Virus record (IMG/VR): IMGVR_UViG_3300008259_004339
Location: 1 to 64,000 of that record
DNA from: an uncultured virus (IMG/VR IMGVR_UViG_3300008259_004339)
Lineage: Duplodnaviria; Heunggongvirae; Uroviricota; Caudoviricetes
Direction: 5' to 3' (one strand)
Length of the DNA: 64,000 bases
A model generated the notes under the pieces. It did no database searches, was not told the origin of the DNA, and saw only the letters and a list, made by a program, of their open reading frames with translations. The translations under genes were made by a program, and so were the position numbers. Below, one piece after another: positions 6,966 through 61,829 of the stretch. Positions within the stretch are counted from its first letter, which is position 1; every line of letters begins with the position of its first letter.

Positions 6966-7041
6966 TGGTGGGTCAAACCGGACTTGAACCGATAACCAAA
7001 GAATTATGAGTTCTACGCTCTAACCATTGAGCTATTGACCC
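6966..7041 (-). tRNA. tRNA with CAT anticodon, Ile2-type (lysidine) more likely than Met
   Basis: GGGTCAATAGCTCAATGGTTAGAGCGTAGAACT-CAT-AATTCTTTGGTTATCGGTTCAAGTCCGGTTTGACCCACCA; canonical cloverleaf resembling bacterial tRNA-Ile2. Confidence 0.9.
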
Positions 7042-7064: not shown

Positions 7065-7157
7065 TGGTGGCTCCGTAGGGAATTGAACCCTATCAGCACC
7101 CAAATCTAGGGATTATACAGATTATAAGTCTGCCCATGCACCATACATCACAGAGCC
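7065..7157 (-). tRNA. tRNA with TAT anticodon (Ile) and long variable arm
   Basis: GGCTCTG/CGGAGCC acceptor, GCAGA-CT-TAT-AA-TCTGT anticodon arm, 24-nt variable region, TAGGG-TTCAATT-CCCTA T arm, ACCA end. Confidence 0.85.
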
Positions 7158-7170
7158 ATTTTAAAAAAAC

Positions 7171-7243
7171 TGGAGCGGGTCCGAACTTTGCATTTCGCCT
7201 TCTGATCTGGTAGACCAGCGTGCCCTCTTTACACTTGACCCGC
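7171..7243 (-). tRNA. tRNA-Gly(ACC), atypical T arm
   Basis: GCGGGTC/GACCCGC acceptor with U73 (Gly identity), CTGGT-CT-ACC-AG-ATCAG anticodon arm, T loop TGCAAA, TCCA end. Confidence 0.75.
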
Positions 7244-7253
7244 ATTTAAATTC

Positions 7254-7540
7254 AAATAGGAAGGACTAATGATTACCTCCAAGTTTCACAATATGCACCG
7301 TTATTCATCCACAATCCATAAAGTTAATTACTCTCTATGTTAACGATTGATGGGATTGGTTTCCCACAACGACCTACGATATATCATTTATTTTAGCTAC
7401 GATGTCGTTACGCTTGAATTATAGGTTGTACGACCCACAATCCGCCATAGACTTACACTGCACATTATTACTCCAACCAATAATGATTCTTCACCACTAT
7501 TGTGCGTTACCCCTATACAAAGGTTGTTCCGCCACTATCT
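7254..7540 (-). ncRNA. Candidate ~287-nt highly structured ncRNA
   Basis: ORF-free spacer between tRNAs; closing stem AGATAG/CTATTT, nested helices CACAATA/TATTGTG and GGATTGTGGGT/ACCTATAATTC, several hairpins; boxA motif directly upstream. Confidence 0.65.
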
Positions 7541-7541
7541 T

Positions 7542-7557
7542 AAATTGTTAAAGAACT
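7542..7557 (-). promoter_or_regulatory. rrn-type boxA antitermination motif
   Basis: AGTTCTTTAACAATTT versus E. coli rrn boxA TGCTCTTTAACAATTT; recurs before several RNA genes. Confidence 0.65.
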
Positions 7558-7566
7558 ATCAAAAAA

Positions 7567-7642
7567 TGGTGCCTATGACTGGATTCGAACCAGTACTACC
7601 GAAATTTTAAGTTTCGTGACTCTGCCGTTGGTCTACATAGGC
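7567..7642 (-). tRNA. tRNA-Leu(TAA) with short variable loop
   Basis: GCCTATG/CATAGGC acceptor, CGAAA-CT-TAA-AA-TTTCG, 5-nt variable loop, TTCGAAT T loop, ACCA end. Confidence 0.9.
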
Positions 7643-7644
7643 AT

Positions 7645-7660
7645 AAATTGTTTAAAGAAC
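7645..7660 (-). promoter_or_regulatory. boxA-like motif
   Basis: GTTCTTTAAACAATTT between the promoter at 7680-7707 and tRNA-Leu(TAA). Confidence 0.6.
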
Positions 7661-7679
7661 CATCACTTACTACTCTTTT

Positions 7680-7707
7680 ATCTTACCACATCATCTTCTG
7701 ATGTCAA
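7680..7707 (-). promoter_or_regulatory. Sigma70-type promoter
   Basis: TTGACA-N16-TAAGAT with GTGG immediately before the -10. Confidence 0.75.
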
Positions 7708-7723
7708 CTGCTTTTTCAAAAAA

Positions 7724-7800
7724 TGGTAGCTAGGGTCAGATTCGAACTGACACTGTACACTTTTTGAGAGTGCTGCCTCCTGCCTTTGGGCTACCTAGCC
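7724..7800 (-). tRNA. tRNA-Leu(CAA) with short variable loop
   Basis: GGCTAGG/CCTAGCT acceptor, GCACT-CT-CAA-AA-AGTGT, 5-nt variable loop, GTCAG-TTCGAAT-CTGAC, ACCA end. Confidence 0.9.
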
Positions 7801-7809
7801 ATTTAAAAT

Positions 7810-7918
7810 TGTTCTTCCAATGGATTTGCACCATCATTTACGATATGGAAGAGTTACCGTTAGACTTTCACGAATAGTAGAGTCATTATTAATGTTTCTC
7901 TACGCACGATATAGTTCC
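7810..7918 (-). ncRNA. Candidate small RNA ending in a tRNA-like minihelix
   Basis: GTAGAG/CTCTAC hairpin, then TCTTCCA/TGGAAGA acceptor-like stem enclosing ATGG-TGCAAAT-CCAT T-arm-like hairpin, ending ACAA. Confidence 0.45.
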
Positions 7919-7924
7919 TAAATT

Positions 7925-8018
7925 TGGTGGTTCCGCCCGGATTCGAACCGAGACCGTGCTCAAATCTAGAGCTTATCAACGTTATAAGCGTTGCGTTCTA
8001 CCGTTAAACTACGGAACC
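7925..8018 (-). tRNA. tRNA with TAT anticodon (Ile) and long variable arm, second copy
   Basis: GGTTCCG/CGGAACC acceptor, CAACG-CT-TAT-AA-CGTTG, 24-nt variable region with GCTC-TAGATTT-GAGC hairpin, TTCGAAT T loop, ACCA end. Confidence 0.88.
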
Positions 8019-8024
8019 ACTAAA

Positions 8025-8101
8025 TGGTAGCGGGGGAGTGAATTGAACACTCTACCTTCCGGTTATGAGCCGGACGATCTATTCCGTTGATCTACCCCGC
8101 A
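8025..8101 (-). tRNA. Initiator-like tRNA-fMet(CAT)
   Basis: TGCGGGG/CCCCGCT with 1:72 mismatch, TCCGG-CT-CAT-AA-CCGGA, overall similarity to bacterial fMet tRNA, ACCA end. Confidence 0.85.
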
Positions 8102-10471: not shown

Positions 10472-10552
10472 TGGCGCTCCGGGAGGGACTTGAACCCCCA
10501 TTTTCATCCATTTATGCACTTAGGGCTTAGAAGACCCCGCCAGTACCGGAGC
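10472..10552 (-). tRNA. D-armless tRNA-Arg(TCT) with long variable region
   Basis: GCTCCGG/CCGGAGC acceptor, only TACTGGC in place of the D arm, GGGGT-CT-TCT-AA-GCCCT, 22-nt variable region, GGGGG-TTCAAGT-CCCTC, GCCA end. Confidence 0.75.
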
Positions 10553-12142: not shown

Positions 12143-12175
12143 NNNNNNNNNNNNNNNNNNNNNNNNNNNNNNNNN
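12143..12175. other. Assembly gap (33 N)
   Basis: Run of N. Confidence 1.
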
Positions 12176-12996: not shown

Positions 12997-13034
12997 ATAT
13001 AAAAAGTATACACGATGATGTGGTTGTGGTCAAT

Positions 13035-13061
13035 AAAAAAAGCGTACCGAGTGGTACGCTT
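13035..13061 (-). terminator. Rho-independent terminator
   Basis: AAGCGTACC-GAGT-GGTACGCTT hairpin with U-run on the minus strand. Confidence 0.8.
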
Positions 13062-13067
13062 GATGTT

Positions 13068-13586
13068 TTAGTTAGTTGGTTCGTGGGGATAGTCCGATCT
13101 TAGATGCTCTAATCTTAACTCCATATTAACAAGTTCTCGTTTAGTGTTTCTCAGTTCACTTTCAAGTTCAGTGATTTTTCTGAGTCTTGCATCAAGAATG
13201 TAATCTGGATCTGAATGTTCTCTATTTTTGATATCTTCTTCTAATGCACATCCAATGTGGTTTGTACCAAAAAGATATTCAACATCATCATTATAGGTAT
13301 TTTTACCGCAATAATTGCATATCCACTTTTCTTTTCGTTCGTTTGTAATAATCTTTTCTAATCTGGTTAGAGTCTCTACTACTTCAGTATTAGATTCGGC
13401 ATTAATAATATCATATGCCCAGTTTAAAGCATTATCTTCACGATCTTTCAACTCAGGAAAGAGTGTAATTAATTCATTCTCAATTAGTCCAATATATGGA
13501 TCGATTTGTTCTTTTTGAACATTTCGGATTTTACGTGCGTAAGTAAGAATGATATTTTTACTTACTGTGTCTATTTCTGTTTTCAT
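13068..13586 (-). CDS. Hypothetical protein with CxxC motif and coiled coil
   Basis: 172-aa ORF; WICNYCGK...HIGC. Confidence 0.65.
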   Translation of the reverse strand: MKTEIDTVSKNIILTYARKIRNVQKEQIDPYIGLIENELITLFPELKDREDNALNWAYDIINAESNTEVVETLTRLEKIITNERKEKWICNYCGKNTYNDDVEYLFGTNHIGCALEEDIKNREHSDPDYILDARLRKITELESELRNTKRELVNMELRLEHLRSDYPHEPTN

Positions 13587-13590
13587 ATGT

Positions 13591-13749
13591 TTATTTAGTG
13601 TTTGTTAAATATTTAAGCACTTCTTTTAGTGTGAAATAAAAGAAAAATGGTATCAATACCGCAAAGAAAATCATCAACACCAATATCAATGCTATTGCAA
13701 ATATACTACCAAATATTAATCCAACCGTCAAATTTATAATTTTACTCAT
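13591..13749 (-). CDS. Small membrane protein
   Basis: Manual translation MSKIINLTVGLIFGSIFAIALILVLMIFFAVLIPFFFYF...(52 aa). Confidence 0.6.
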   Translation of the reverse strand: MSKIINLTVGLIFGSIFAIALILVLMIFFAVLIPFFFYFTLKEVLKYLTNTK

Positions 13750-14017
13750 TTTTTAAAAATTTATTGTAAATCAATTTGCCTAAATTAGCTGCAAATTTAC
13801 GAGCTTTCTTTTCTGGTAAATCATACAAATGTGCGTGAAATACTTCTTCAATCAATACATTGAGTTGTCTACGAGTTAGTAACGTTGGATCTACATGAAT
13901 TTGTGGATTTTTAATATTAGGATTATCACACAAACCAGATGTCGGCCGATTGTGCCATAACGCCGGTTTGTTATAATTTACAGTGTACTCCACACCTTCA
14001 AAATTCTTAAATTTCAT
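13742..14017 (-). CDS. Zincin-like small protein
   Basis: GLCD...IHVDP...LIEEVFHAH (degenerate HExxH). Confidence 0.55.
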   Translation of the reverse strand: MKFKNFEGVEYTVNYNKPALWHNRPTSGLCDNPNIKNPQIHVDPTLLTRRQLNVLIEEVFHAHLYDLPEKKARKFAANLGKLIYNKFLKNE

Positions 14018-14259
14018 TTTAAAAAATCTTTTAGTTGTTTTTGATTTTCTGTATTTAGAATTATATAATCAGACCAAGGTTTACCATGTCGTAATATTTG
14101 CCAACACCATCTTAGTCTTTCTCGCCATGGCAGAATTCTACCACTAAGACCTCTTTCAAACAAGCTCAAAGATACTTCTTCTTCATCTTTAAATTTTTCA
14201 ACAAGAAGTCCGTGTTCAAAACAATCACAAATTAGAAATATTGATTCTTGATCTTTCAT
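14014..14259 (-). CDS. Hypothetical protein
   Basis: 81-aa ORF with 4-nt overlaps to neighbours. Confidence 0.65.
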   Translation of the reverse strand: MKDQESIFLICDCFEHGLLVEKFKDEEEVSLSLFERGLSGRILPWRERLRWCWQILRHGKPWSDYIILNTENQKQLKDFLK

Positions 14260-14840
14260 ATAATTAGTTTACGTTCCAATTTCCAAACATTAGCAATCAA
14301 AAATGAACCAGTAGAATACAACAATCTACAGATAAACCTAATAATTTTATTATATGGTTTGATAACTAATTTATAAAGATTAGTAGATTCAAACTCCTTG
14401 TTCTTTTTAAGTACTTCAATATGAAGTTTATAGTCTTCTTTTCTTTTAGAGTTATCAGTAGCTTCAAACTTAATTAGTTTAATCTTGTCAATAACTCCGT
14501 CAATAAATACAATTTCAAATTCAACCCAATAGTCATATGGTCCATCATTATAATTGTTATAATCATACATATGTATGGTTGTGGTTGTTTTTACATGCGT
14601 CCACCAATCTTTGGTTACTTTTACCATCCCATACTTTTCAAAGAATGTTTTACCGTTTGGATCGCCTTCAATATATTCTCGCTCACATTCATGCAACCAT
14701 AGTGTGCCATCTTCACGGATTTCATAACAATCCAAAGCATTGTCCAAATCTTTGGTTTGAAATCCATTAGGAATATATCCCTTAGTATCTTCTGGTAAAG
14801 GAAGAGGGTATTTACATACTATGTCATCATACATACCCAT
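14256..14840 (-). CDS. Phage hypothetical protein
   Basis: MGMYDDIVC...FQTKDLDNALDCYEIREDG motif. Confidence 0.7.
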   Translation of the reverse strand: MGMYDDIVCKYPLPLPEDTKGYIPNGFQTKDLDNALDCYEIREDGTLWLHECEREYIEGDPNGKTFFEKYGMVKVTKDWWTHVKTTTTIHMYDYNNYNDGPYDYWVEFEIVFIDGVIDKIKLIKFEATDNSKRKEDYKLHIEVLKKNKEFESTNLYKLVIKPYNKIIRFICRLLYSTGSFLIANVWKLERKLII

Positions 14841-14843
14841 AAA

Positions 14844-15077
14844 TTAATTACCTCCATTCTTGTATTCTTGAACATCATATAGAAAACTACGAAATGCTTG
14901 ATAGTCTTCAACATCAGCTTGTAATTCTCCTTCGGTCTTGTAATCCTTGATATATTCACACAACGAATCAATGTAATACCTTGGAATAGTGATGTTTTTA
15001 CCATCAAACTTCAAGTCATCGTGTTGAATAATGATTGGATTGATTACTTTGTCTTTAATTGTTAGTTCCGTTTCCAT
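14844..15077 (-). CDS. Hypothetical protein
   Basis: 77-aa ORF downstream of a TTGACA promoter-like site. Confidence 0.6.
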   Translation of the reverse strand: METELTIKDKVINPIIIQHDDLKFDGKNITIPRYYIDSLCEYIKDYKTEGELQADVEDYQAFRSFLYDVQEYKNGGN

Positions 15078-15154
15078 AGTAGTATTCTATATCTAACTAT
15101 CAAACTTTGTCAATATAAAAAATTATTTCGAAATATAAAAAATAGATATAGATA

Positions 15155-15997
15155 ATGAAAGGGATTATTTTAGCTGGAGGTACCGGTAGTAGATTATATC
15201 CATTAACCAGTACAATAAATAAACAATTGTTGCCTGTTTATGACAAGCCAATGATTTATTATCCATTTTGCACATTATTGTCGTGTGGTATTAAAGATTT
15301 TTGCATTATTTCTTCTCCTGAATATTTGCCTTCTTATGAAAAGCTATTTGGAGATGGCACTCAATTGGGAGTTAAGCTTACTTATAAAGTGCAATATAAG
15401 CCAAGAGGCATAGCTGAAAGTTTTATTATAGCCGAAGACTTTATTGGTGACGATAATGTTGCTCTTATACTAGGAGACAATATATTCCACGGAATGCCCA
15501 GAGTCAAGCCTTTACTTGAAGGTGCAATTATTTTTGGTTATGAAGTTAATGATCCTAGAGCTTATGGCGTTATTGAATTTGACAGTGAAAACAACGTAAT
15601 AAGCATAGAAGAAAAACCAGTTGAACCCAAAAGTAATTATGCGGTACCAGGCTTATATTTTTATGATAAAAGAGTAGTTCAGTATGCTAAATCACTTAAG
15701 CCTTCGAACAGAGGTGAAATTGAAATAACTGATTTGAACTTAATATATCTTGACAAAGCGCAGCTTACTGCTGTAAAATTTGCTAAAGGCACAGCGTGGT
15801 TAGATGCTGGAAGTGCTGAAACATTATTTGAAAGTAGTGCTTATATACAAGCTATTCAATCAAGACAGGGAATTAAAATAGGATGTATAGAAGAAGAGTG
15901 CTACAAGCGCAAATATATAAGCAAAGAGCAGCTTAAAGCGCTTATAGAAAAATTACCAAACAGTGAGTATAAAAAATATTTAAATAAATTATTATGA
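15155..15997 (+). CDS. rmlA: Glucose-1-phosphate thymidylyltransferase
   Basis: MKGIILAGGTGSRLYPLT, KQLLPVYDKPMIYYP, LILGDNIF, EEKP, RGEIEITD, WLDAG. Confidence 0.96.
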   Translation: MKGIILAGGTGSRLYPLTSTINKQLLPVYDKPMIYYPFCTLLSCGIKDFCIISSPEYLPSYEKLFGDGTQLGVKLTYKVQYKPRGIAESFIIAEDFIGDDNVALILGDNIFHGMPRVKPLLEGAIIFGYEVNDPRAYGVIEFDSENNVISIEEKPVEPKSNYAVPGLYFYDKRVVQYAKSLKPSNRGEIEITDLNLIYLDKAQLTAVKFAKGTAWLDAGSAETLFESSAYIQAIQSRQGIKIGCIEEECYKRKYISKEQLKALIEKLPNSEYKKYLNKLL

Positions 15998-16860
15998 TTA
16001 TATTATTCGGATCAATCGGTTATATTGGAAGTGAATTCAAAAAGCAATTAGCTGAATTAAAGCTACCTGTTTTTCTTTGGCCAAATGCGCATAAAACCAC
16101 TTTTGCAGATTTGGAAAAGTGGTATGATGAAGCTGGATACCCACTCATAGGCGCTGTAATAAATGCAGCGGGATATACTGGTAAACCTAATGTGGATGCA
16201 TGTGAATTAAACAAAGAAGCTACTATTCACGGCAATATTGTATGGCCGCAAATATTAACTGATTGGTGTATGTTAAATGATATACCCTTAGCGCATGTTT
16301 CCAGTGGTTGTATATATGAAGGTAAAAGAGCCGATGGCAATCCTTTTACTGAAGAAGATGTACCAAACTTTAGTTTTGCGCAAAATAACTGTAGTTTCTA
16401 CAGTGGTACCAAAGTAATAGGTGAACAAGTAGTAAAGAAGTGGGAAAAGCACTATATTTGGAGATTACGAATTCCATTTGAAGAGTTTGATAATTCTAGA
16501 AATTATATAAGCAAAATATTAAAGTATGAAAGACTGTTAGATGCTGAAAATAGTGTAAGCAACAAACAAGAATTTGTAAGTGCTTGTATTCAAACTATTA
16601 CCAAAGAAGTTCCATATGGTACATATAATGTGACCAATGGTGGTTATATCACGACCAAGGGTGTAGTAGAAAAGTTTAAGAATACAATTGCAAAAGGCAA
16701 AACCTTTACATTTGTGGAAGAAGATGAATTTTATAAAAATGTAGTCAAAACACCCCGATCAAATTGTGTGATGAGCAACGAAAAATTATTGTCAACTGGA
16801 ATCAAAATGAGAACAGCAGACGAAGCCTTTGACTATTGCATTAACAATTGGACCATATGA
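15994..16860 (+). CDS. rmlD: dTDP-4-dehydrorhamnose reductase-like SDR (possibly bifunctional epimerase/reductase)
   Basis: GSIGYIG, NAAGYTGKPNVDACE, SSGCIY, YSGTK, PRSNC. Confidence 0.8.
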   Translation: MIILFGSIGYIGSEFKKQLAELKLPVFLWPNAHKTTFADLEKWYDEAGYPLIGAVINAAGYTGKPNVDACELNKEATIHGNIVWPQILTDWCMLNDIPLAHVSSGCIYEGKRADGNPFTEEDVPNFSFAQNNCSFYSGTKVIGEQVVKKWEKHYIWRLRIPFEEFDNSRNYISKILKYERLLDAENSVSNKQEFVSACIQTITKEVPYGTYNVTNGGYITTKGVVEKFKNTIAKGKTFTFVEEDEFYKNVVKTPRSNCVMSNEKLLSTGIKMRTADEAFDYCINNWTI

Positions 16861-17813
16861 ATATATTAGTAACAGGAGCATGTGGATTTATTGGAAGTCA
16901 CTTTATAGAAGAAATTCTAAAAAGGGATGATGTTGTTATGGTTTATAACATTGATTGTGGTACTTATGCTGCAAACAAAAAACTTCCCTTTCAAAAAGAT
17001 CCTAGATATCACAGATTATCAATGAACATTGCTGCGCCTTATTTTCCAGATCAAAAGAAATATATTGATTCATTAAATTTAGATTATGTGATTCATTTTG
17101 CAGCAGAATCGCACGTGGATAACTCTATCAAGGGACCAAAAAGATTTATTGAAACAAACATTATTGGTACTTTTAATCTGTTAGAAATGCTTAAGGGTAC
17201 AAACATAAAGAAGTTTATCCACGTATCCACCGATGAAGTGTATGGATCATTGAATCACAAAGAAGGATCTTTTACTACAGACAGTCCTTATAGAGCAAAT
17301 AATCCATATTCAGCTACTAAAGCTGCCAGCGATCTACTGGTTAGAAGTTATAACAAAACTTATAATTTCCCAGCGATTATTACCAATTGCAGCAACAACT
17401 TTGGGTCCAGACAATATACCGAAAAGATGATTCCAGTATGTATTCAGAAACTTCTCAACAAAGAAACCATACCTTTATATGGTAATGGGTCGAATGTAAG
17501 AGATTGGATCTATGTCAAAGACCACGTTAATGCACTTATATGCGTTCTATTAGATGGTAAAATAGGAAAACAGTATTTGATAGGGTCTGACAACGAACTA
17601 TCTAACTATGAGCTTATACACGTGATTAAAGAGGTATATAGTACCATAACTGGAATAGAAGTAGACTGGGAGTGGTTTAAATATGTTGAAGACCGTAAAG
17701 GACACGATAGTAGATACAGCATTGACAATCGTGACTTCAAGATGGAGTTTCCTCAATTTAACACAACTAAATTTGATATTGCTATTTTGGAAACGGTTAA
17801 ATCATATTTATAA
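16857..17813 (+). CDS. rmlB: dTDP-glucose 4,6-dehydratase
   Basis: TGACGFIGS, HFAAESHVDNSI, HVSTDEVYG, PYSATKA, RDWIYVKDH, DRKGHD. Confidence 0.95.
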   Translation: MNILVTGACGFIGSHFIEEILKRDDVVMVYNIDCGTYAANKKLPFQKDPRYHRLSMNIAAPYFPDQKKYIDSLNLDYVIHFAAESHVDNSIKGPKRFIETNIIGTFNLLEMLKGTNIKKFIHVSTDEVYGSLNHKEGSFTTDSPYRANNPYSATKAASDLLVRSYNKTYNFPAIITNCSNNFGSRQYTEKMIPVCIQKLLNKETIPLYGNGSNVRDWIYVKDHVNALICVLLDGKIGKQYLIGSDNELSNYELIHVIKEVYSTITGIEVDWEWFKYVEDRKGHDSRYSIDNRDFKMEFPQFNTTKFDIAILETVKSYL

Positions 17814-17816
17814 TAT

Positions 17817-18203
17817 GTGCCCGTTAGAATTTATTCTAAAGAAGCCAAGGACTTAACTCTCTTTGAAGAAAAGAGTTGTGGAAAGCTGATATCTTCTGGA
17901 TCGATTTATTCGGTGTATGTTGAGTGTTGTACCCCAGATAAAAAAATACCAAATAGAGTGTTTTTAGCCAAGGACAATGGTAAGATTGTAGGGTGGTCCA
18001 TTATACGACTAAAGAAAAAAATGGGAGTTAATGGATACTTTGAGTTTATGGTTTATATCAAACGTCTTTATAGACGTAAAGGTATAGCTACAAAGATGTA
18101 CAAAAGATCTCGCAAATACTTCAACTTGGAAGATGACGATATAAAGGTATACAAAACAGACAGAGCCAATATTAGTTTCTTTGACTCTGTTATGGAGTCA
18201 TAG
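17817..18203 (+). CDS. GNAT-family acetyltransferase
   Basis: VYIKRLYRRKGIATKM acetyl-CoA motif. Confidence 0.7.
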   Translation: MPVRIYSKEAKDLTLFEEKSCGKLISSGSIYSVYVECCTPDKKIPNRVFLAKDNGKIVGWSIIRLKKKMGVNGYFEFMVYIKRLYRRKGIATKMYKRSRKYFNLEDDDIKVYKTDRANISFFDSVMES

Positions 18204-60004: not shown

Positions 60005-61143
60005 ATAAATTATCAAGAACAAAGCCTTATATTCCCAAAGAAGACCACAAAGAAATCTTGGATAGAGTTGCTGATATTCTAAATACAGAGTCCCTAGTTC
60101 AGTCAAAGTATGTGTCCGAATTTGAAAACTTGTTCGCAAAGTATTGTGGAACAAAATATGCAGTTGCAACTTGTTCCGGCGGAACTTGTTTGGAAGTAGC
60201 ACTTAGAGCATCTGGTTTGGTTGGCAAAAAGATTATTGTTCCAACTCAAACATTTATAGCAAGTGTAAGTGCAATTGTTCGTTCCAACAATATTCCAGTA
60301 ATCGTAGATATTGATGAAAATACTCATTGTTTAAGTGCAGATGTAATCGAAAGAAGTTTGGACAAAGATGTAGCCGGTGTAATGTTGGTTCATATGGCGG
60401 GATATATTACTCCTGACTATTATAACATTAAAAAACTATGTGACAAACACGGTCTACTATTGTTTGAAGATGCTTCTCACGCAGTAGGAGCTACTATTGA
60501 TAACCTTCACACTGGAAACTTAGGATACGCAGGGTGTTTTTCATTATTTGCTACTAAGATCATAACTACAGGTGAAGGTGGAATAATTACTACCAATGAT
60601 GAAAAATTTGCAGAAACTTGCAAGACATTGAGAAATCACGGAGCTGTTAGAAATCCAACCCCAGTAAACGGTGTAGATTTTGGTGTAAGTTGTGAATTTA
60701 TATCATCCAACTATAAAATGACAGAAATGGTTGCGGCTCTTGGTATCAGTCAGTTGAAACGAGTTAACGAATTTGTTGAGAAAAGAAATATTATAGCAAA
60801 AAGATACAGAGAAAAAATTACAAATCCCAAGATTAAATTTATTGATGTTCCAGATAATATAACCAATACTTGGTGGCACTATATTATAGAATTGCCAAGA
60901 TCTACAACTTTGAATGAAAGATCTGAAATTTGTAAAAAACTATTCTTGGAATATAACATACCCACAGCAAATGCTTATTGGCCAGCTTGTCACCAACAAA
61001 AAGTATTTGAACCATACACTGTAAATCAGTCTTATCAATCAGCAGATGGATTGTTATCTCGACATTTGTCCATCCCTATGTACGTAGAAATGACTATGGA
61101 TCAAGCTGACTATGTTGCGGATGTAATCAATAAAATTGTATGA
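60001..61143 (+). CDS. DegT/DnrJ/EryC1/StrS sugar aminotransferase
   Basis: FE..FA, SGG, VHMAG, EDASHA, FSLFATKIITTGEGG, NYKM. Confidence 0.93.
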   Translation: MNKLSRTKPYIPKEDHKEILDRVADILNTESLVQSKYVSEFENLFAKYCGTKYAVATCSGGTCLEVALRASGLVGKKIIVPTQTFIASVSAIVRSNNIPVIVDIDENTHCLSADVIERSLDKDVAGVMLVHMAGYITPDYYNIKKLCDKHGLLLFEDASHAVGATIDNLHTGNLGYAGCFSLFATKIITTGEGGIITTNDEKFAETCKTLRNHGAVRNPTPVNGVDFGVSCEFISSNYKMTEMVAALGISQLKRVNEFVEKRNIIAKRYREKITNPKIKFIDVPDNITNTWWHYIIELPRSTTLNERSEICKKLFLEYNIPTANAYWPACHQQKVFEPYTVNQSYQSADGLLSRHLSIPMYVEMTMDQADYVADVINKIV

Positions 61144-61829
61144 TCATAAGCATTCATCAGCCAAATTACTTACCTTGGATGGGGTTTTTTGATAAAATAG
61201 CTAGAAGCGATATCTTTGTTATTTTTGATAATGTACAATTTCCCCGAGGTAAACAGCACTTTGGTCATAGAAATTTAATTAAGACAGACGGCGAACCCAA
61301 ATGGTTAACCGTTCCATTAAATGGAAAAAGTGAATTGAAGAACTTTAATGAAATTGAAATCAACCACAACGGATGGAATGATAACCATTTAAATTTGATT
61401 AAAAACTTCTATAAAAAGTCAAAATACTTTAATGTTTATTATGGCGATCTAGAATCAATTCTTAAAGTCAATCATAAAACATTGTCAGATTTAAACAGTG
61501 CTTTAATTAAATATTTCTTAAATGTAATGGATATTAAAACGCAAGTTGTATTTTGCTCGGAAATATGTCCCAATGAGGTTTCTGGCGGAGATCGTATAAT
61601 GTATCTATTAAAAAAATTAAATGCTACAAAATACATTTCTGGTACCGGACCCGGTTCTATGAGATACATTAATGAACAAGAATTTAAGGATAATAACATA
61701 GAATTGATATGGCAACATTATAATCACCCTAAATACACACAGTTATATGGTGACTTCAAACCATATATGTGTATAATAGATTTATTGTTCAATGAAGGTA
61801 CAAATAGCAAAAATATAATTTTAAGTTGA
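61140..61829 (+). CDS. wbqC: WbqC-family protein
   Basis: IHQPNYLPWMGFFDKI, DNVQF...RN.I, WLTVP, YISG, IIDLLFNEG. Confidence 0.9.
   Translation: MIISIHQPNYLPWMGFFDKIARSDIFVIFDNVQFPRGKQHFGHRNLIKTDGEPKWLTVPLNGKSELKNFNEIEINHNGWNDNHLNLIKNFYKKSKYFNVYYGDLESILKVNHKTLSDLNSALIKYFLNVMDIKTQVVFCSEICPNEVSGGDRIMYLLKKLNATKYISGTGPGSMRYINEQEFKDNNIELIWQHYNHPKYTQLYGDFKPYMCIIDLLFNEGTNSKNIILS

Follow-up and report, generated by a model that had tools for sequence, protein, structure and literature searches.

The DNA analysed here, a 64,000-nucleotide (nt) stretch that we call the window (positions 1 to 64,000 of IMG/VR record IMGVR_UViG_3300008259_004339, an uncultured virus of the Caudoviricetes), carries two transfer RNA (tRNA) genes with the anticodon UAU, gene A and gene B, each of which has in its variable region a hairpin with a 7-nt loop centred on G-A-U. 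We found that both genes belong to a family of long UAU tRNAs in which the stem of this hairpin covaries and the hairpin is linked to the UAU anticodon, and that ATA codons evolve like isoleucine (Ile) codons in this phage group. It is very probable that this is a real family of AUA/Ile-decoding tRNAs whose extra arm is under selection. As a reading of the whole, we tentatively suggest that these tRNAs are lysidine-independent AUA/Ile decoders in which the arm would supply identity elements to the isoleucyl-tRNA synthetase (IleRS) of the host; both charging by IleRS and contact between this enzyme and the arm are steps that we infer from sequence.

Two tRNA(UAU) genes share a hairpin in the variable region

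The two genes and their parts lie in the window as follows.

7065..7157, minus strand: gene A, tRNA(UAU), 93 nt (ARAGORN; Rfam tRNA, 39.3 bits)
7124..7126, minus strand: gene A anticodon UAU, in the loop CUUAUAA
7093..7116, minus strand: gene A variable region AUAA-UCCC-UAGAUUU-GGGU-GCUGA, 24 nt (pair counts, family alignment)
7102..7108, minus strand: gene A loop UAGAUUU, G-A-U central
7925..8018, minus strand: gene B, tRNA(UAU), 94 nt (ARAGORN; Rfam tRNA, 62.5 bits)
7984..7986, minus strand: gene B anticodon UAU, in the loop CUUAUAA
7953..7976, minus strand: gene B variable region AUAA-GCUC-UAGAUUU-GAGC-ACGGU, 24 nt (pair counts, family alignment)
7962..7968, minus strand: gene B loop UAGAUUU, G-A-U central

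ARAGORN, Rfam and our own reading of the minus strand agreed with an earlier note on this DNA, which had described two tRNA genes with the anticodon UAU, the discriminator A73 and a shared 24-nt layout of the variable region. Both genes scored above the gathering score of the Rfam tRNA model RF00005 (29 bits), with 21 nt between the anticodon and T stems treated as an insertion, and both have a 7-base-pair (bp) acceptor stem, a 5-bp T stem, A73 and an encoded CCA. The D stem of gene A consists of 3 bp followed by an extra base, and gene B has a 4-bp D stem with a 7-nt D loop. The stem of the extra arm is made up of three Watson-Crick pairs and a U.U in gene A and of four pairs in gene B. Because the genes are only about 60% identical, they are old paralogues that represent two old branches of the family, and not the twins for which they had been taken.

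The pattern CTAGATTTG had two matches in the window, both within these genes; 0.72 matches are expected by chance, and because 19 of 100 shuffles reached two, the count alone proves nothing. What argues for the loop beyond chance comes from the relatives. Identical copies of gene A were present in other viral contigs, and gene B was unchanged at 94 of 94 positions in a relative clade in which the neighbouring structural protein shows 69% identity and the other tRNAs match those of the window at 61/79 (initiator-like Met), 66/76 (Glu), 55/77 (Lys) and 52/84 positions (Leu, anticodon CAA). The identity of gene B across clades may reflect selection on every base or a recent exchange of gene B alone.

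Contigs from four metatranscriptome runs covered both genes from end to end; since such libraries can contain DNA, these contigs tell us only that the unspliced sequence was present in RNA libraries. The depth on the tRNAs in these runs was low (approximately 3-12) and was not taken as a measure of expression.

The hairpin defines a family of UAU tRNAs

The exact pattern derived from both genes was found at 25 places in IMG/VR contigs, all of them tRNA(tat) genes of 93-94 nt, and we collected at least 70 distinct long UAU tRNAs, 67 of which were aligned (alignment A2). The members come from viral contigs, from metagenome contigs, from five contigs of metagenome-assembled genomes (MAGs) and from one cultured phage, Aeromonas phage 1233, and the phages stem from lake, soil, sea and gut samples. 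All of the patterns that we used required AUAA together with GGTTCRANTCC or GGTTC, so that members deviating from AUAA or from the canonical T loop are under-sampled.

When AUAA, AGAUU and the T loop were held fixed and the anticodon arm was left free, all 38 matches in viral contigs were long tRNAs with the anticodon UAU. Among prokaryotes, searched with one genome per species, the same pattern gave 18 matches: five were long tRNAs, all with UAU, on MAG contigs labelled Hyphomicrobiales, Bacilli (two), Blastocatellia and Terriglobia, nine belonged to a conserved element of gut Clostridia, and the other four are probably chance matches. The Clostridia element (MAG loci L258, L259, L260, L262, L266, L268, L269, L270 and L272) is conserved and is not a tRNA; it shares ATAA...CAGATTT...GGTTCGAATCC and a long conserved 5′ part, and by its context it is unrelated to the tRNA family.

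Three scans were run with patterns that fixed the anticodon loop, AUAA and the T loop and left the arm free, and these returned at least 232 loci, corresponding to at least 64 distinct long UAU tRNAs and at least 59 family members with a parsable hairpin. Among the matches listed, position 1 of the loop was a pyrimidine in 59/59, position 2 was A in 53, G in 4 and U in 2, positions 3 and 4 were G and A, respectively, in 59/59 each, position 5 was U in 57 and C in 2, position 6 was U in 43/59, and position 7 could be any base. The resulting consensus is Y-A-G-A-U-U-N, with the central G-A-U as its most conserved part. The loop TAGATTT, which had been called invariant on the basis of genes A and B, is thus not invariant as a whole, while its central G-A is, and its U very nearly so.

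The stem was examined in the 67 aligned sequences, where its four pairs were 95.1% paired and three of the four showed changes on both sides. The third pair occurred as CG in 17, GC in 16, UA in 16, AU in 9 and UG in 8 sequences, and the second pair was C-G in 61/67. The covariation score of the arm was 0.623, compared with 0.162 in shuffles and at most 0.174 when partner columns were slid. Covariation had first been claimed from the two genes, which differ by C-G versus U-A at one position, and the family bears it out. The proposal that the arm is under selection likewise held up, given the covarying stem, the loop core that is conserved in scans placing no constraint on the loop, and the occurrence of the arm only with UAU.

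The remainder of the molecule looks like that of a tRNA. The anticodon loop was CUUAUAA in 38/67 members and CUUAUAC in 27/67, A73 was present in 66/67 and an encoded CCA in 62/67, and the T and D elements were canonical, with a T stem that was 97.9% paired over its 5 pairs and D loops of 5 to 7 nt. The first acceptor pair was G1.U72 in 33/67 members, an unusual wobble at that place. Members were also found within larger tRNA sets: a 29-tRNA array in the Blastocatellia MAG holds one member among a full set that includes tRNA-Ile(GAU) and two CAU tRNAs, and in a 296-kb viral record (G006) with 29 tRNAs the sole tRNAs with Ile anticodons are two family genes. Placement among full tRNA sets is the context expected of a working elongator tRNA. 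The G006 record also carries a transfer-messenger RNA gene in 190382-190766.

These findings bear on the idea that the genes encode tRNA-like RNAs acting outside translation, as regulators or primers, or that they carry the arm as a neutral relic or as an insertion removed by splicing, all of which we consider extremely improbable. There are odd tRNA-like genes nearby in the same cluster, and the identity of gene B across clades with differing neighbours could mean recent transfer, as would suit such RNAs. Against a role outside translation stand the perfect anticodon loop, A73, the CCA in most members, the canonical T and D elements and the position of members within full tRNA sets. A neutral relic is hard to square with an arm that is conserved across very divergent bodies, and for a spliced insertion we found no joint skipping the arm in the contigs of the four RNA runs, in which rare forms are dropped and mature tRNA is poorly captured.

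Among isolates, blastn with two members identified only Aeromonas phage 1233; two other isolate matches were inspected and proved to be ordinary tRNAs. The member in this phage (OR359403.1) is 93 nt long, has the loop CAGAUUA and the flank AUAG, and is unannotated in the record. The same phage (L458, positions 13008-18099 of the record) has a cluster of 15 tRNA genes by ARAGORN, none of which is annotated there. A second deviant member, at 61086-61178 of the viral record behind L149 (G007), combines a UUAA flank with the loop CGGACUA, the T loop AGCGUUA and a D loop without GG, and is a decaying copy or else a variant whose elbow has changed in concert.

AUA is constrained as an isoleucine codon in this phage group

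In the greedy open reading frame (ORF) set of the window, ATA makes up 492 of the 1501 Ile codons. We aligned the ORFs of the window codon by codon to those of relatives, an approach that gives the meaning of a codon without telling which tRNA reads it. In close relatives, 407 ATA positions showed 109 changes, the commonest being to ATT (22), GTA (17), GTT (14), ATC (9), ATG (9), TTA (7) and ACA (7). Two more distant viral records, with mean protein identities of 53% and 65%, offered 368 ATA positions, at which we counted 274 changes: 38% led to ATT or ATC, 20% to a Val codon and 17% to a Leu codon. For ATT in the distant records, the corresponding proportions were 38, 23 and 15% for the Ile, Val and Leu classes (440 changes), while the Leu controls TTA and CTA changed to other Leu codons in 47% and 69% of cases, respectively. 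Because the replacement profile of ATA matches that of ATT and is unlike those of TTA and CTA, we concluded that AUA is constrained as an Ile codon, and recoding of AUA to Leu, Ser, Tyr, Met or Val is ruled out in this phage group. Comparing AUA codons with their homologs, a check suggested in the earlier note, thus revealed no sign of recoding, and the suggestion made there that the arm might signal charging with another amino acid that recodes AUA is not supported by the behaviour of the codon. A residue-level test on the thymidylyltransferase was not used, as all 120 homologues among the matches listed were 81-97% identical, which made the test circular.

The same data make it very unlikely that the tRNAs are charged by leucyl-tRNA synthetase or another synthetase that ignores the anticodon, attracted by A73, an A15-U48-type core and the long arm, with Leu inserted at AUA as the outcome. 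ATA exchanges with ATT, ATC and Val codons as ATT does, and not in the manner of TTA and CTA; the D stem (4 bp) and D loop (7 nt) of gene B are of the class I type; and the arm, with 2-4 unpaired bases on its 5′ side, 5 unpaired bases on its 3′ side and a 7-nt loop, is unlike the arms of tRNA-Leu. What can be said for Leu charging is that gene A, with its 3-bp D stem and G9, resembles the class II tRNA-Leu(CAA) of a relative, that bacterial Leu identity is listed as A73, tertiary elements and a large variable region (PMC9976931), and that the nematode nev-tRNA-Ile(UAU) takes only leucine in vitro, according to a passage in PMC3333845.

The arm as a candidate identity element for isoleucyl-tRNA synthetase

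Bacteria read AUA by means of a lysidine-modified tRNA-Ile2 or, rarely, by means of a UAU tRNA accompanied by an adapted IleRS and ribosome. With an unadapted host, a UAU tRNA meets two obstacles: E. coli IleRS charges tRNA-Ile(UAU) poorly, and on E. coli ribosomes a UAU tRNA fails to discriminate AUA from AUG, as stated in an excerpt of PMC3575796. Since a phage tRNA cannot change the host, the tRNA must bring its own fix. The bacterial Ile identity set, as given in an extract of PMC9976931, comprises A73, C4-G69, U12-A23, G16, U20, U21, C29-G41, C/G34, A35, U36, A37 and A38, and t6A37 (N6-threonylcarbamoyladenosine at position 37) is a strong IleRS determinant in the same source. Taken together, the minor E. 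coli IleRS determinants of the body (C29-G41, G16, U20, U21, C4-G69, U12-A23) are not what the family carries: C29-G41 was present in 11/67 members and C4-G69 in 37/67, and the D loop AAYGGUA is without G16 or U21. U12-A23 is present in gene B, and A35-U36-A37 is kept in the family.

We propose that genes A and B would be elongator tRNAs that read AUA as Ile through an unmodified-type UAU anticodon, which would free them from any requirement for lysidine and thus for TilS, and that they would serve an AT-rich phage in which AUA accounts for a third of the Ile codons. The extra arm would be a selected module specific to the UAU family and might act as a surrogate anticodon-type arm for the IleRS of the host. 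Its putative layout is that of a 4-bp stem (5 bp with an A.R mismatch at the base) and a 7-nt loop that begins with a pyrimidine, like position 32, and carries G-A-U at its centre; the 5-nt linker behind the arm resembles an ordinary variable loop. Such an arm would offer IleRS the determinants G34-A35-U36 and a C-G pair equivalent to 29-41, which would be the second pair of the stem if the four pairs are numbered 28-31/39-42; the real anticodon arm is without these determinants, having U34 and only rarely C29-G41. The ribosome would read the UAU arm and IleRS the other, and the two anticodon-type arms would stand in tandem, the first placed right for the D arm and the second for the T arm. 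A second anticodon-like loop for IleRS is, judging from the sequences, the single most likely role of the arm. The more specific scenario, a tRNA that splits identity from decoding, with the UAU arm for the ribosome and the G-A-U arm presented to IleRS through a swapped-arm conformation or a new contact, and possibly derived by duplication of the anticodon arm of a tRNA-Ile(GAU), we regard as doubtful.

Three viral records, two of them rated complete, were searched for a class I synthetase core (PF00133), a TilS-type domain (PF01171) and RtcB, and none of these was found. As no synthetase core was present in these records, the partner of the tRNA would be a host enzyme. The earlier note had also predicted that the phage gains TilS-independent decoding of AUA. 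This is supported by the share of ATA among Ile codons, by the ATT-like evolution of ATA and by the three records without TilS, and it is qualified by the neighbouring tRNA(CAU) at 6966-7041, which may be a lysidine-type tRNA-Ile2. A cellular role in genomes devoid of TilS was rejected: each of the five MAGs with a member carries a TilS-type PF01171 protein, so the family gene does not replace a missing TilS in them.

Several points weigh against recognition of the arm by IleRS, or against parts of the proposal as a whole. The variable arm of known class II tRNAs points away from the anticodon, so that IleRS could read the arm only in another conformation or through a new contact. Among the matches listed, the loop has A at the place of position 33 in 53/59 and U at the place of position 37 in 43/59, where real anticodon loops have U33 and A37, and GAC takes the place of GAU in 2/59 members as well as in the G007 copy. 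Positions 2 and 6 of the loop could pair (A-U in 48, G-C in 3, G-U in 1 and other combinations in 15 of 67), which would leave a G-A-U triloop; because the three G-C cases stem from closely related sequences, this pairing is a possibility only. Deviant members, with AUAG in the Aeromonas phage and UUAA in G007, lie outside the patterns that were used. Class I tRNA(UAU) genes without the arm exist, once in the same genome as gene B, and the arm is therefore not strictly required for the use of UAU. In that instance, the relative L150, gene B has beside it a class I tRNA(UAU) of 77 nt that lacks the arm; with its anticodon stem CACUC/GGGUG and its G16/UU D loop, this tRNA has an Ile-type body. 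The Ile determinants used above were defined for E. coli and may not be those of the hosts concerned here, and the RNA-library contigs, which may contain DNA, are no proof of transcription.

Two further ideas about the arm were discarded. Pairing of the loop AGAUU with the anticodon stem fits gene A and fails in gene B. AUAA as a codon mimic paired with UUAU in the tRNA's own anticodon loop would need a linker, which is absent, and one sub-group has the AU as part of the anticodon stem itself.

The tRNA might also be a normal AUA/Ile decoder whose arm acts on the ribosome or on folding: by making a body with a very short D loop more rigid, or by changing its shape, the arm would confine U34 to pairing with A and exclude G, and so limit the misincorporation of Ile at AUG, or it would simply stabilise the core. 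Such a role is unlikely in our estimation. In its favour, the arm is seen only with UAU, the family has D loops of 5 to 7 nt, and a phage tRNA must bring some remedy of its own, since a UAU tRNA was blind to the difference between AUA and AUG on E. coli ribosomes (PMC3575796). A structural role, however, leaves the fixed G-A-U and the one constant C-G pair unexplained while the other pairs of the stem covary freely, and nothing in this analysis indicated that a variable arm influences wobble.

Conserved single-stranded bases on a covarying stem also resemble a protein-binding hairpin, and the occurrence of the family in lake, soil, sea and gut phages indicates a partner that bacteria share. 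Both features would suit an arm that serves as a handle for an enzyme modifying U34 or A37, or as a shield from host enzymes that modify U34. We consider this quite unlikely, as no candidate enzyme emerged: in the window, the only tRNA-modifying enzyme feature recognised was a generic methyltransferase domain in a 902-amino-acid protein.

The earlier note had also raised the possibility of a decoy for an anticodon nuclease. Phage tRNAs have been proposed to evade tRNA-targeting defences, as mentioned in PMC10264068, and in one uncultured Bacilli MAG locus with phage-like neighbours (L263, 1641-2855 and 1-258) the member directly follows a gene for the RNA ligase RtcB (E 5e-49), and a GIY-YIG (SegE-like) endonuclease is encoded close by. 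That the arm serves as decoy for, or shield from, a host tRNA nuclease directed at the GAU anticodon loop of tRNA-Ile, or as a handle for RNA repair, nevertheless seems decidedly unlikely to us, because a decoy needs neither restriction to UAU tRNAs nor A73 and CCA, RtcB is absent from the three viral records, and this analysis turned up no Ile-specific defence nuclease. Our preferred reading thus remains that of an arm offered to the host IleRS.

Comparison with known tRNAs and significance

We found no published description of a UAU tRNA with this hairpin in the full-text literature, subscription journals being outside its coverage. Several known tRNAs share some of its features. The class I tRNA-Ile2(UAU) of Mycoplasma mobile, as portrayed in the excerpt of PMC3575796, likewise has UAU and A73, reads AUA as Ile independently of lysidine, and faces the same two problems of IleRS recognition of U34 and AUG misreading; there, the tRNA has an ordinary short variable loop, and the cell has adapted its IleRS (Arg865) and its ribosome. 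In contrast, the family described here is phage-borne, with no phage IleRS in the three viral records, and the tRNA itself bears a conserved arm on a body that is not of the Ile type. Lactic acid bacteria are also reported to have a class I tRNA-Ile2(UAU), in work cited by PMC9976931.

The nematode nev-tRNA-Ile(UAU) resembles the family in combining UAU with a long variable arm at a rare codon; in the passage of PMC3333845, nev-tRNAs are described as derived from tRNA-Leu, restricted to nematodes and charged with Leu. Unlike these, the present genes are carried by contigs of phages and of bacterial MAGs, the body of gene B is of the class I type, the G-A-U of the loop is fixed, and ATA evolves as an Ile codon. 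The allo-tRNAs (Mukai et al., 2017; PMC5389517) are irregular tRNAs of bacteria and phages with a long variable arm, with UAU among the predominant anticodons, and they have 8/4 or 9/3 acceptor/T stems and serine-type features, whereas the family has 7/5 stems and A73.

With the class II tRNAs for Leu, Ser and Tyr, the family shares a base-paired arm between the anticodon and T stems, and it differs from them in its UAU anticodon and in the 2-4 and 5 unpaired bases that flank the arm. Class II arms typically have a short variable loop, in place of which the family arm has a conserved loop of 7 nt. The closest likeness in phages was found in D-armless UAU tRNA-like genes on viral contigs (L301, L314, L317, L323 and L325), which are phage-borne and have the anticodon loop CUUAUA, AUAA after the anticodon stem and a long variable region; unlike the family, they have neither the D arm nor the G-A-U hairpin. 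ARAGORN did not call these five genes, and it called similar metagenome loci (L358 and L431) as long tRNAs.

A mobile tRNA cannot adapt the enzymes of its host, and a conserved module found only with UAU would be a third, portable solution to the reading of AUA. If our proposal is right, phages of many hosts could bring along an AUA decoder that any ordinary IleRS could charge, and tRNA recognition would gain a new principle, in that the arm would be an identity element located in neither the anticodon nor the acceptor. Separating the part read by the synthetase from the part read by the ribosome would also be useful for genetic-code engineering, and the member in the cultured Aeromonas phage 1233 makes the role of the arm directly testable. 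At present, annotation pipelines label the family genes as plain tRNA-Ile or miss them. New in this work are the anticodon-free and loop-free tests, the pair counts, the Ile-like profile of ATA and the contrast in IleRS determinants between the two arms, together with the finding of no phage synthetase in the three viral records, the splicing check in RNA libraries and the member in a cultured phage.

The phage and its tRNA cluster

The window belongs to a large phage genome that is rich in AT (32% G+C), and it encodes a T4-type family B DNA polymerase, a clamp loader, a helicase and a prohead protease, along with many homing and HNH endonucleases and many sugar-nucleotide enzymes. By DNA polymerase, the closest isolate is Microcystis phage Mel-JY01, at 41.8% amino-acid identity. 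No near-identical phage was present in the GenBank phage set, and a blastn search of this set with the 1.3-kb tRNA region for distant matches found only the ordinary neighbouring tRNAs. The DNA sequencing runs that contain the stretch are mainly lake, freshwater and drinking-water metagenomes, with four labelled as fungus metagenome. The nearest isolate and the habitat suggest a host that is possibly cyanobacterial. A run of 33 N occupies 12143-12175 of the window.

The tRNA cluster lies on the minus strand between 6966 and approximately 10552, with eight genes called by ARAGORN, and includes two further tRNAs next to the UAU genes.

6966..7041, minus strand: tRNA(CAU), 23 nt downstream of gene A (ARAGORN; Rfam tRNA, 69.2 bits)
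8025..8101, minus strand: tRNA(CAU) with a U1.U72 mismatch, 6 nt upstream of gene B (ARAGORN drawing)

The antisense strand of the first matched the Plastid-ycf2 model at 56.8 bits, under the cut-off of 65.7; this model presumably adjoins plastid trnI-CAU. The tRNA(CAU) at 6966-7041 is possibly a lysidine-type tRNA-Ile2, and hence a second kind of AUA decoder. The second, with its U1.U72 mismatch, we take to resemble a bacterial initiator tRNA, and its pairing with gene B recurs in relatives.

Bacterial tRNA-Leu normally has a long variable arm. On the minus strand, the cluster contains two tRNAs with Leu anticodons, UAA (7567-7642, 76 nt) and CAA (7724-7800, 77 nt); each has A73 and a short variable loop. 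In place of the 77-nt tRNA(CAA), the relative clade has an 84-nt class II tRNA(CAA), and 75-nt tRNAs with the Leu anticodons UAG and UAA were seen in the MAG tRNA array.

The tRNA-like gene at 10475-10552 (minus strand, 31.4 bits) has the anticodon loop CUUCUAA (UCU), no D arm, a variable region of approximately 19-22 nt, the discriminator G and an encoded CCA. Its shape resembles that of the D-armless phage UAU genes described above, in contrast to the normal tRNA-Arg(UCU) in the cluster of a relative. Between gene A and the neighbouring RNA gene described below, a cloverleaf-like element at 7160-7243 (minus strand) was called by neither ARAGORN nor Rfam. Its acceptor-type stem of 7 bp, GCGGGUC/GACCCGC, leads into U-CCA; a D-type arm of 4 bp and a stem with the loop CUACCAG are also present, and an odd 4-bp arm replaces the T arm.

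An intergenic RNA gene beside gene A

Between gene A and the tRNA(UAA) lies an intergenic RNA gene of approximately 295 nt (7246-7545, minus strand). No Rfam model matched it at E values up to 1, and a scan with a 17-nt motif found homologues only in the phage group of the window. It is conserved at approximately 80% in relatives, with 10 compensatory pairs among three sequences, and its minus strand folds at -77.7 kcal/mol (z -2.9) versus -43.2 for the plus strand. In three metatranscriptome runs it was by a wide margin the deepest part of the stretch, with a word depth of approximately 257-658 versus 3-12 on the tRNAs. In one contig, position 7541 at the 3′ end of the RNA gene is followed by position 7249 at its 5′ start (depth 274), an arrangement that points to a circular RNA or to tandem copies.

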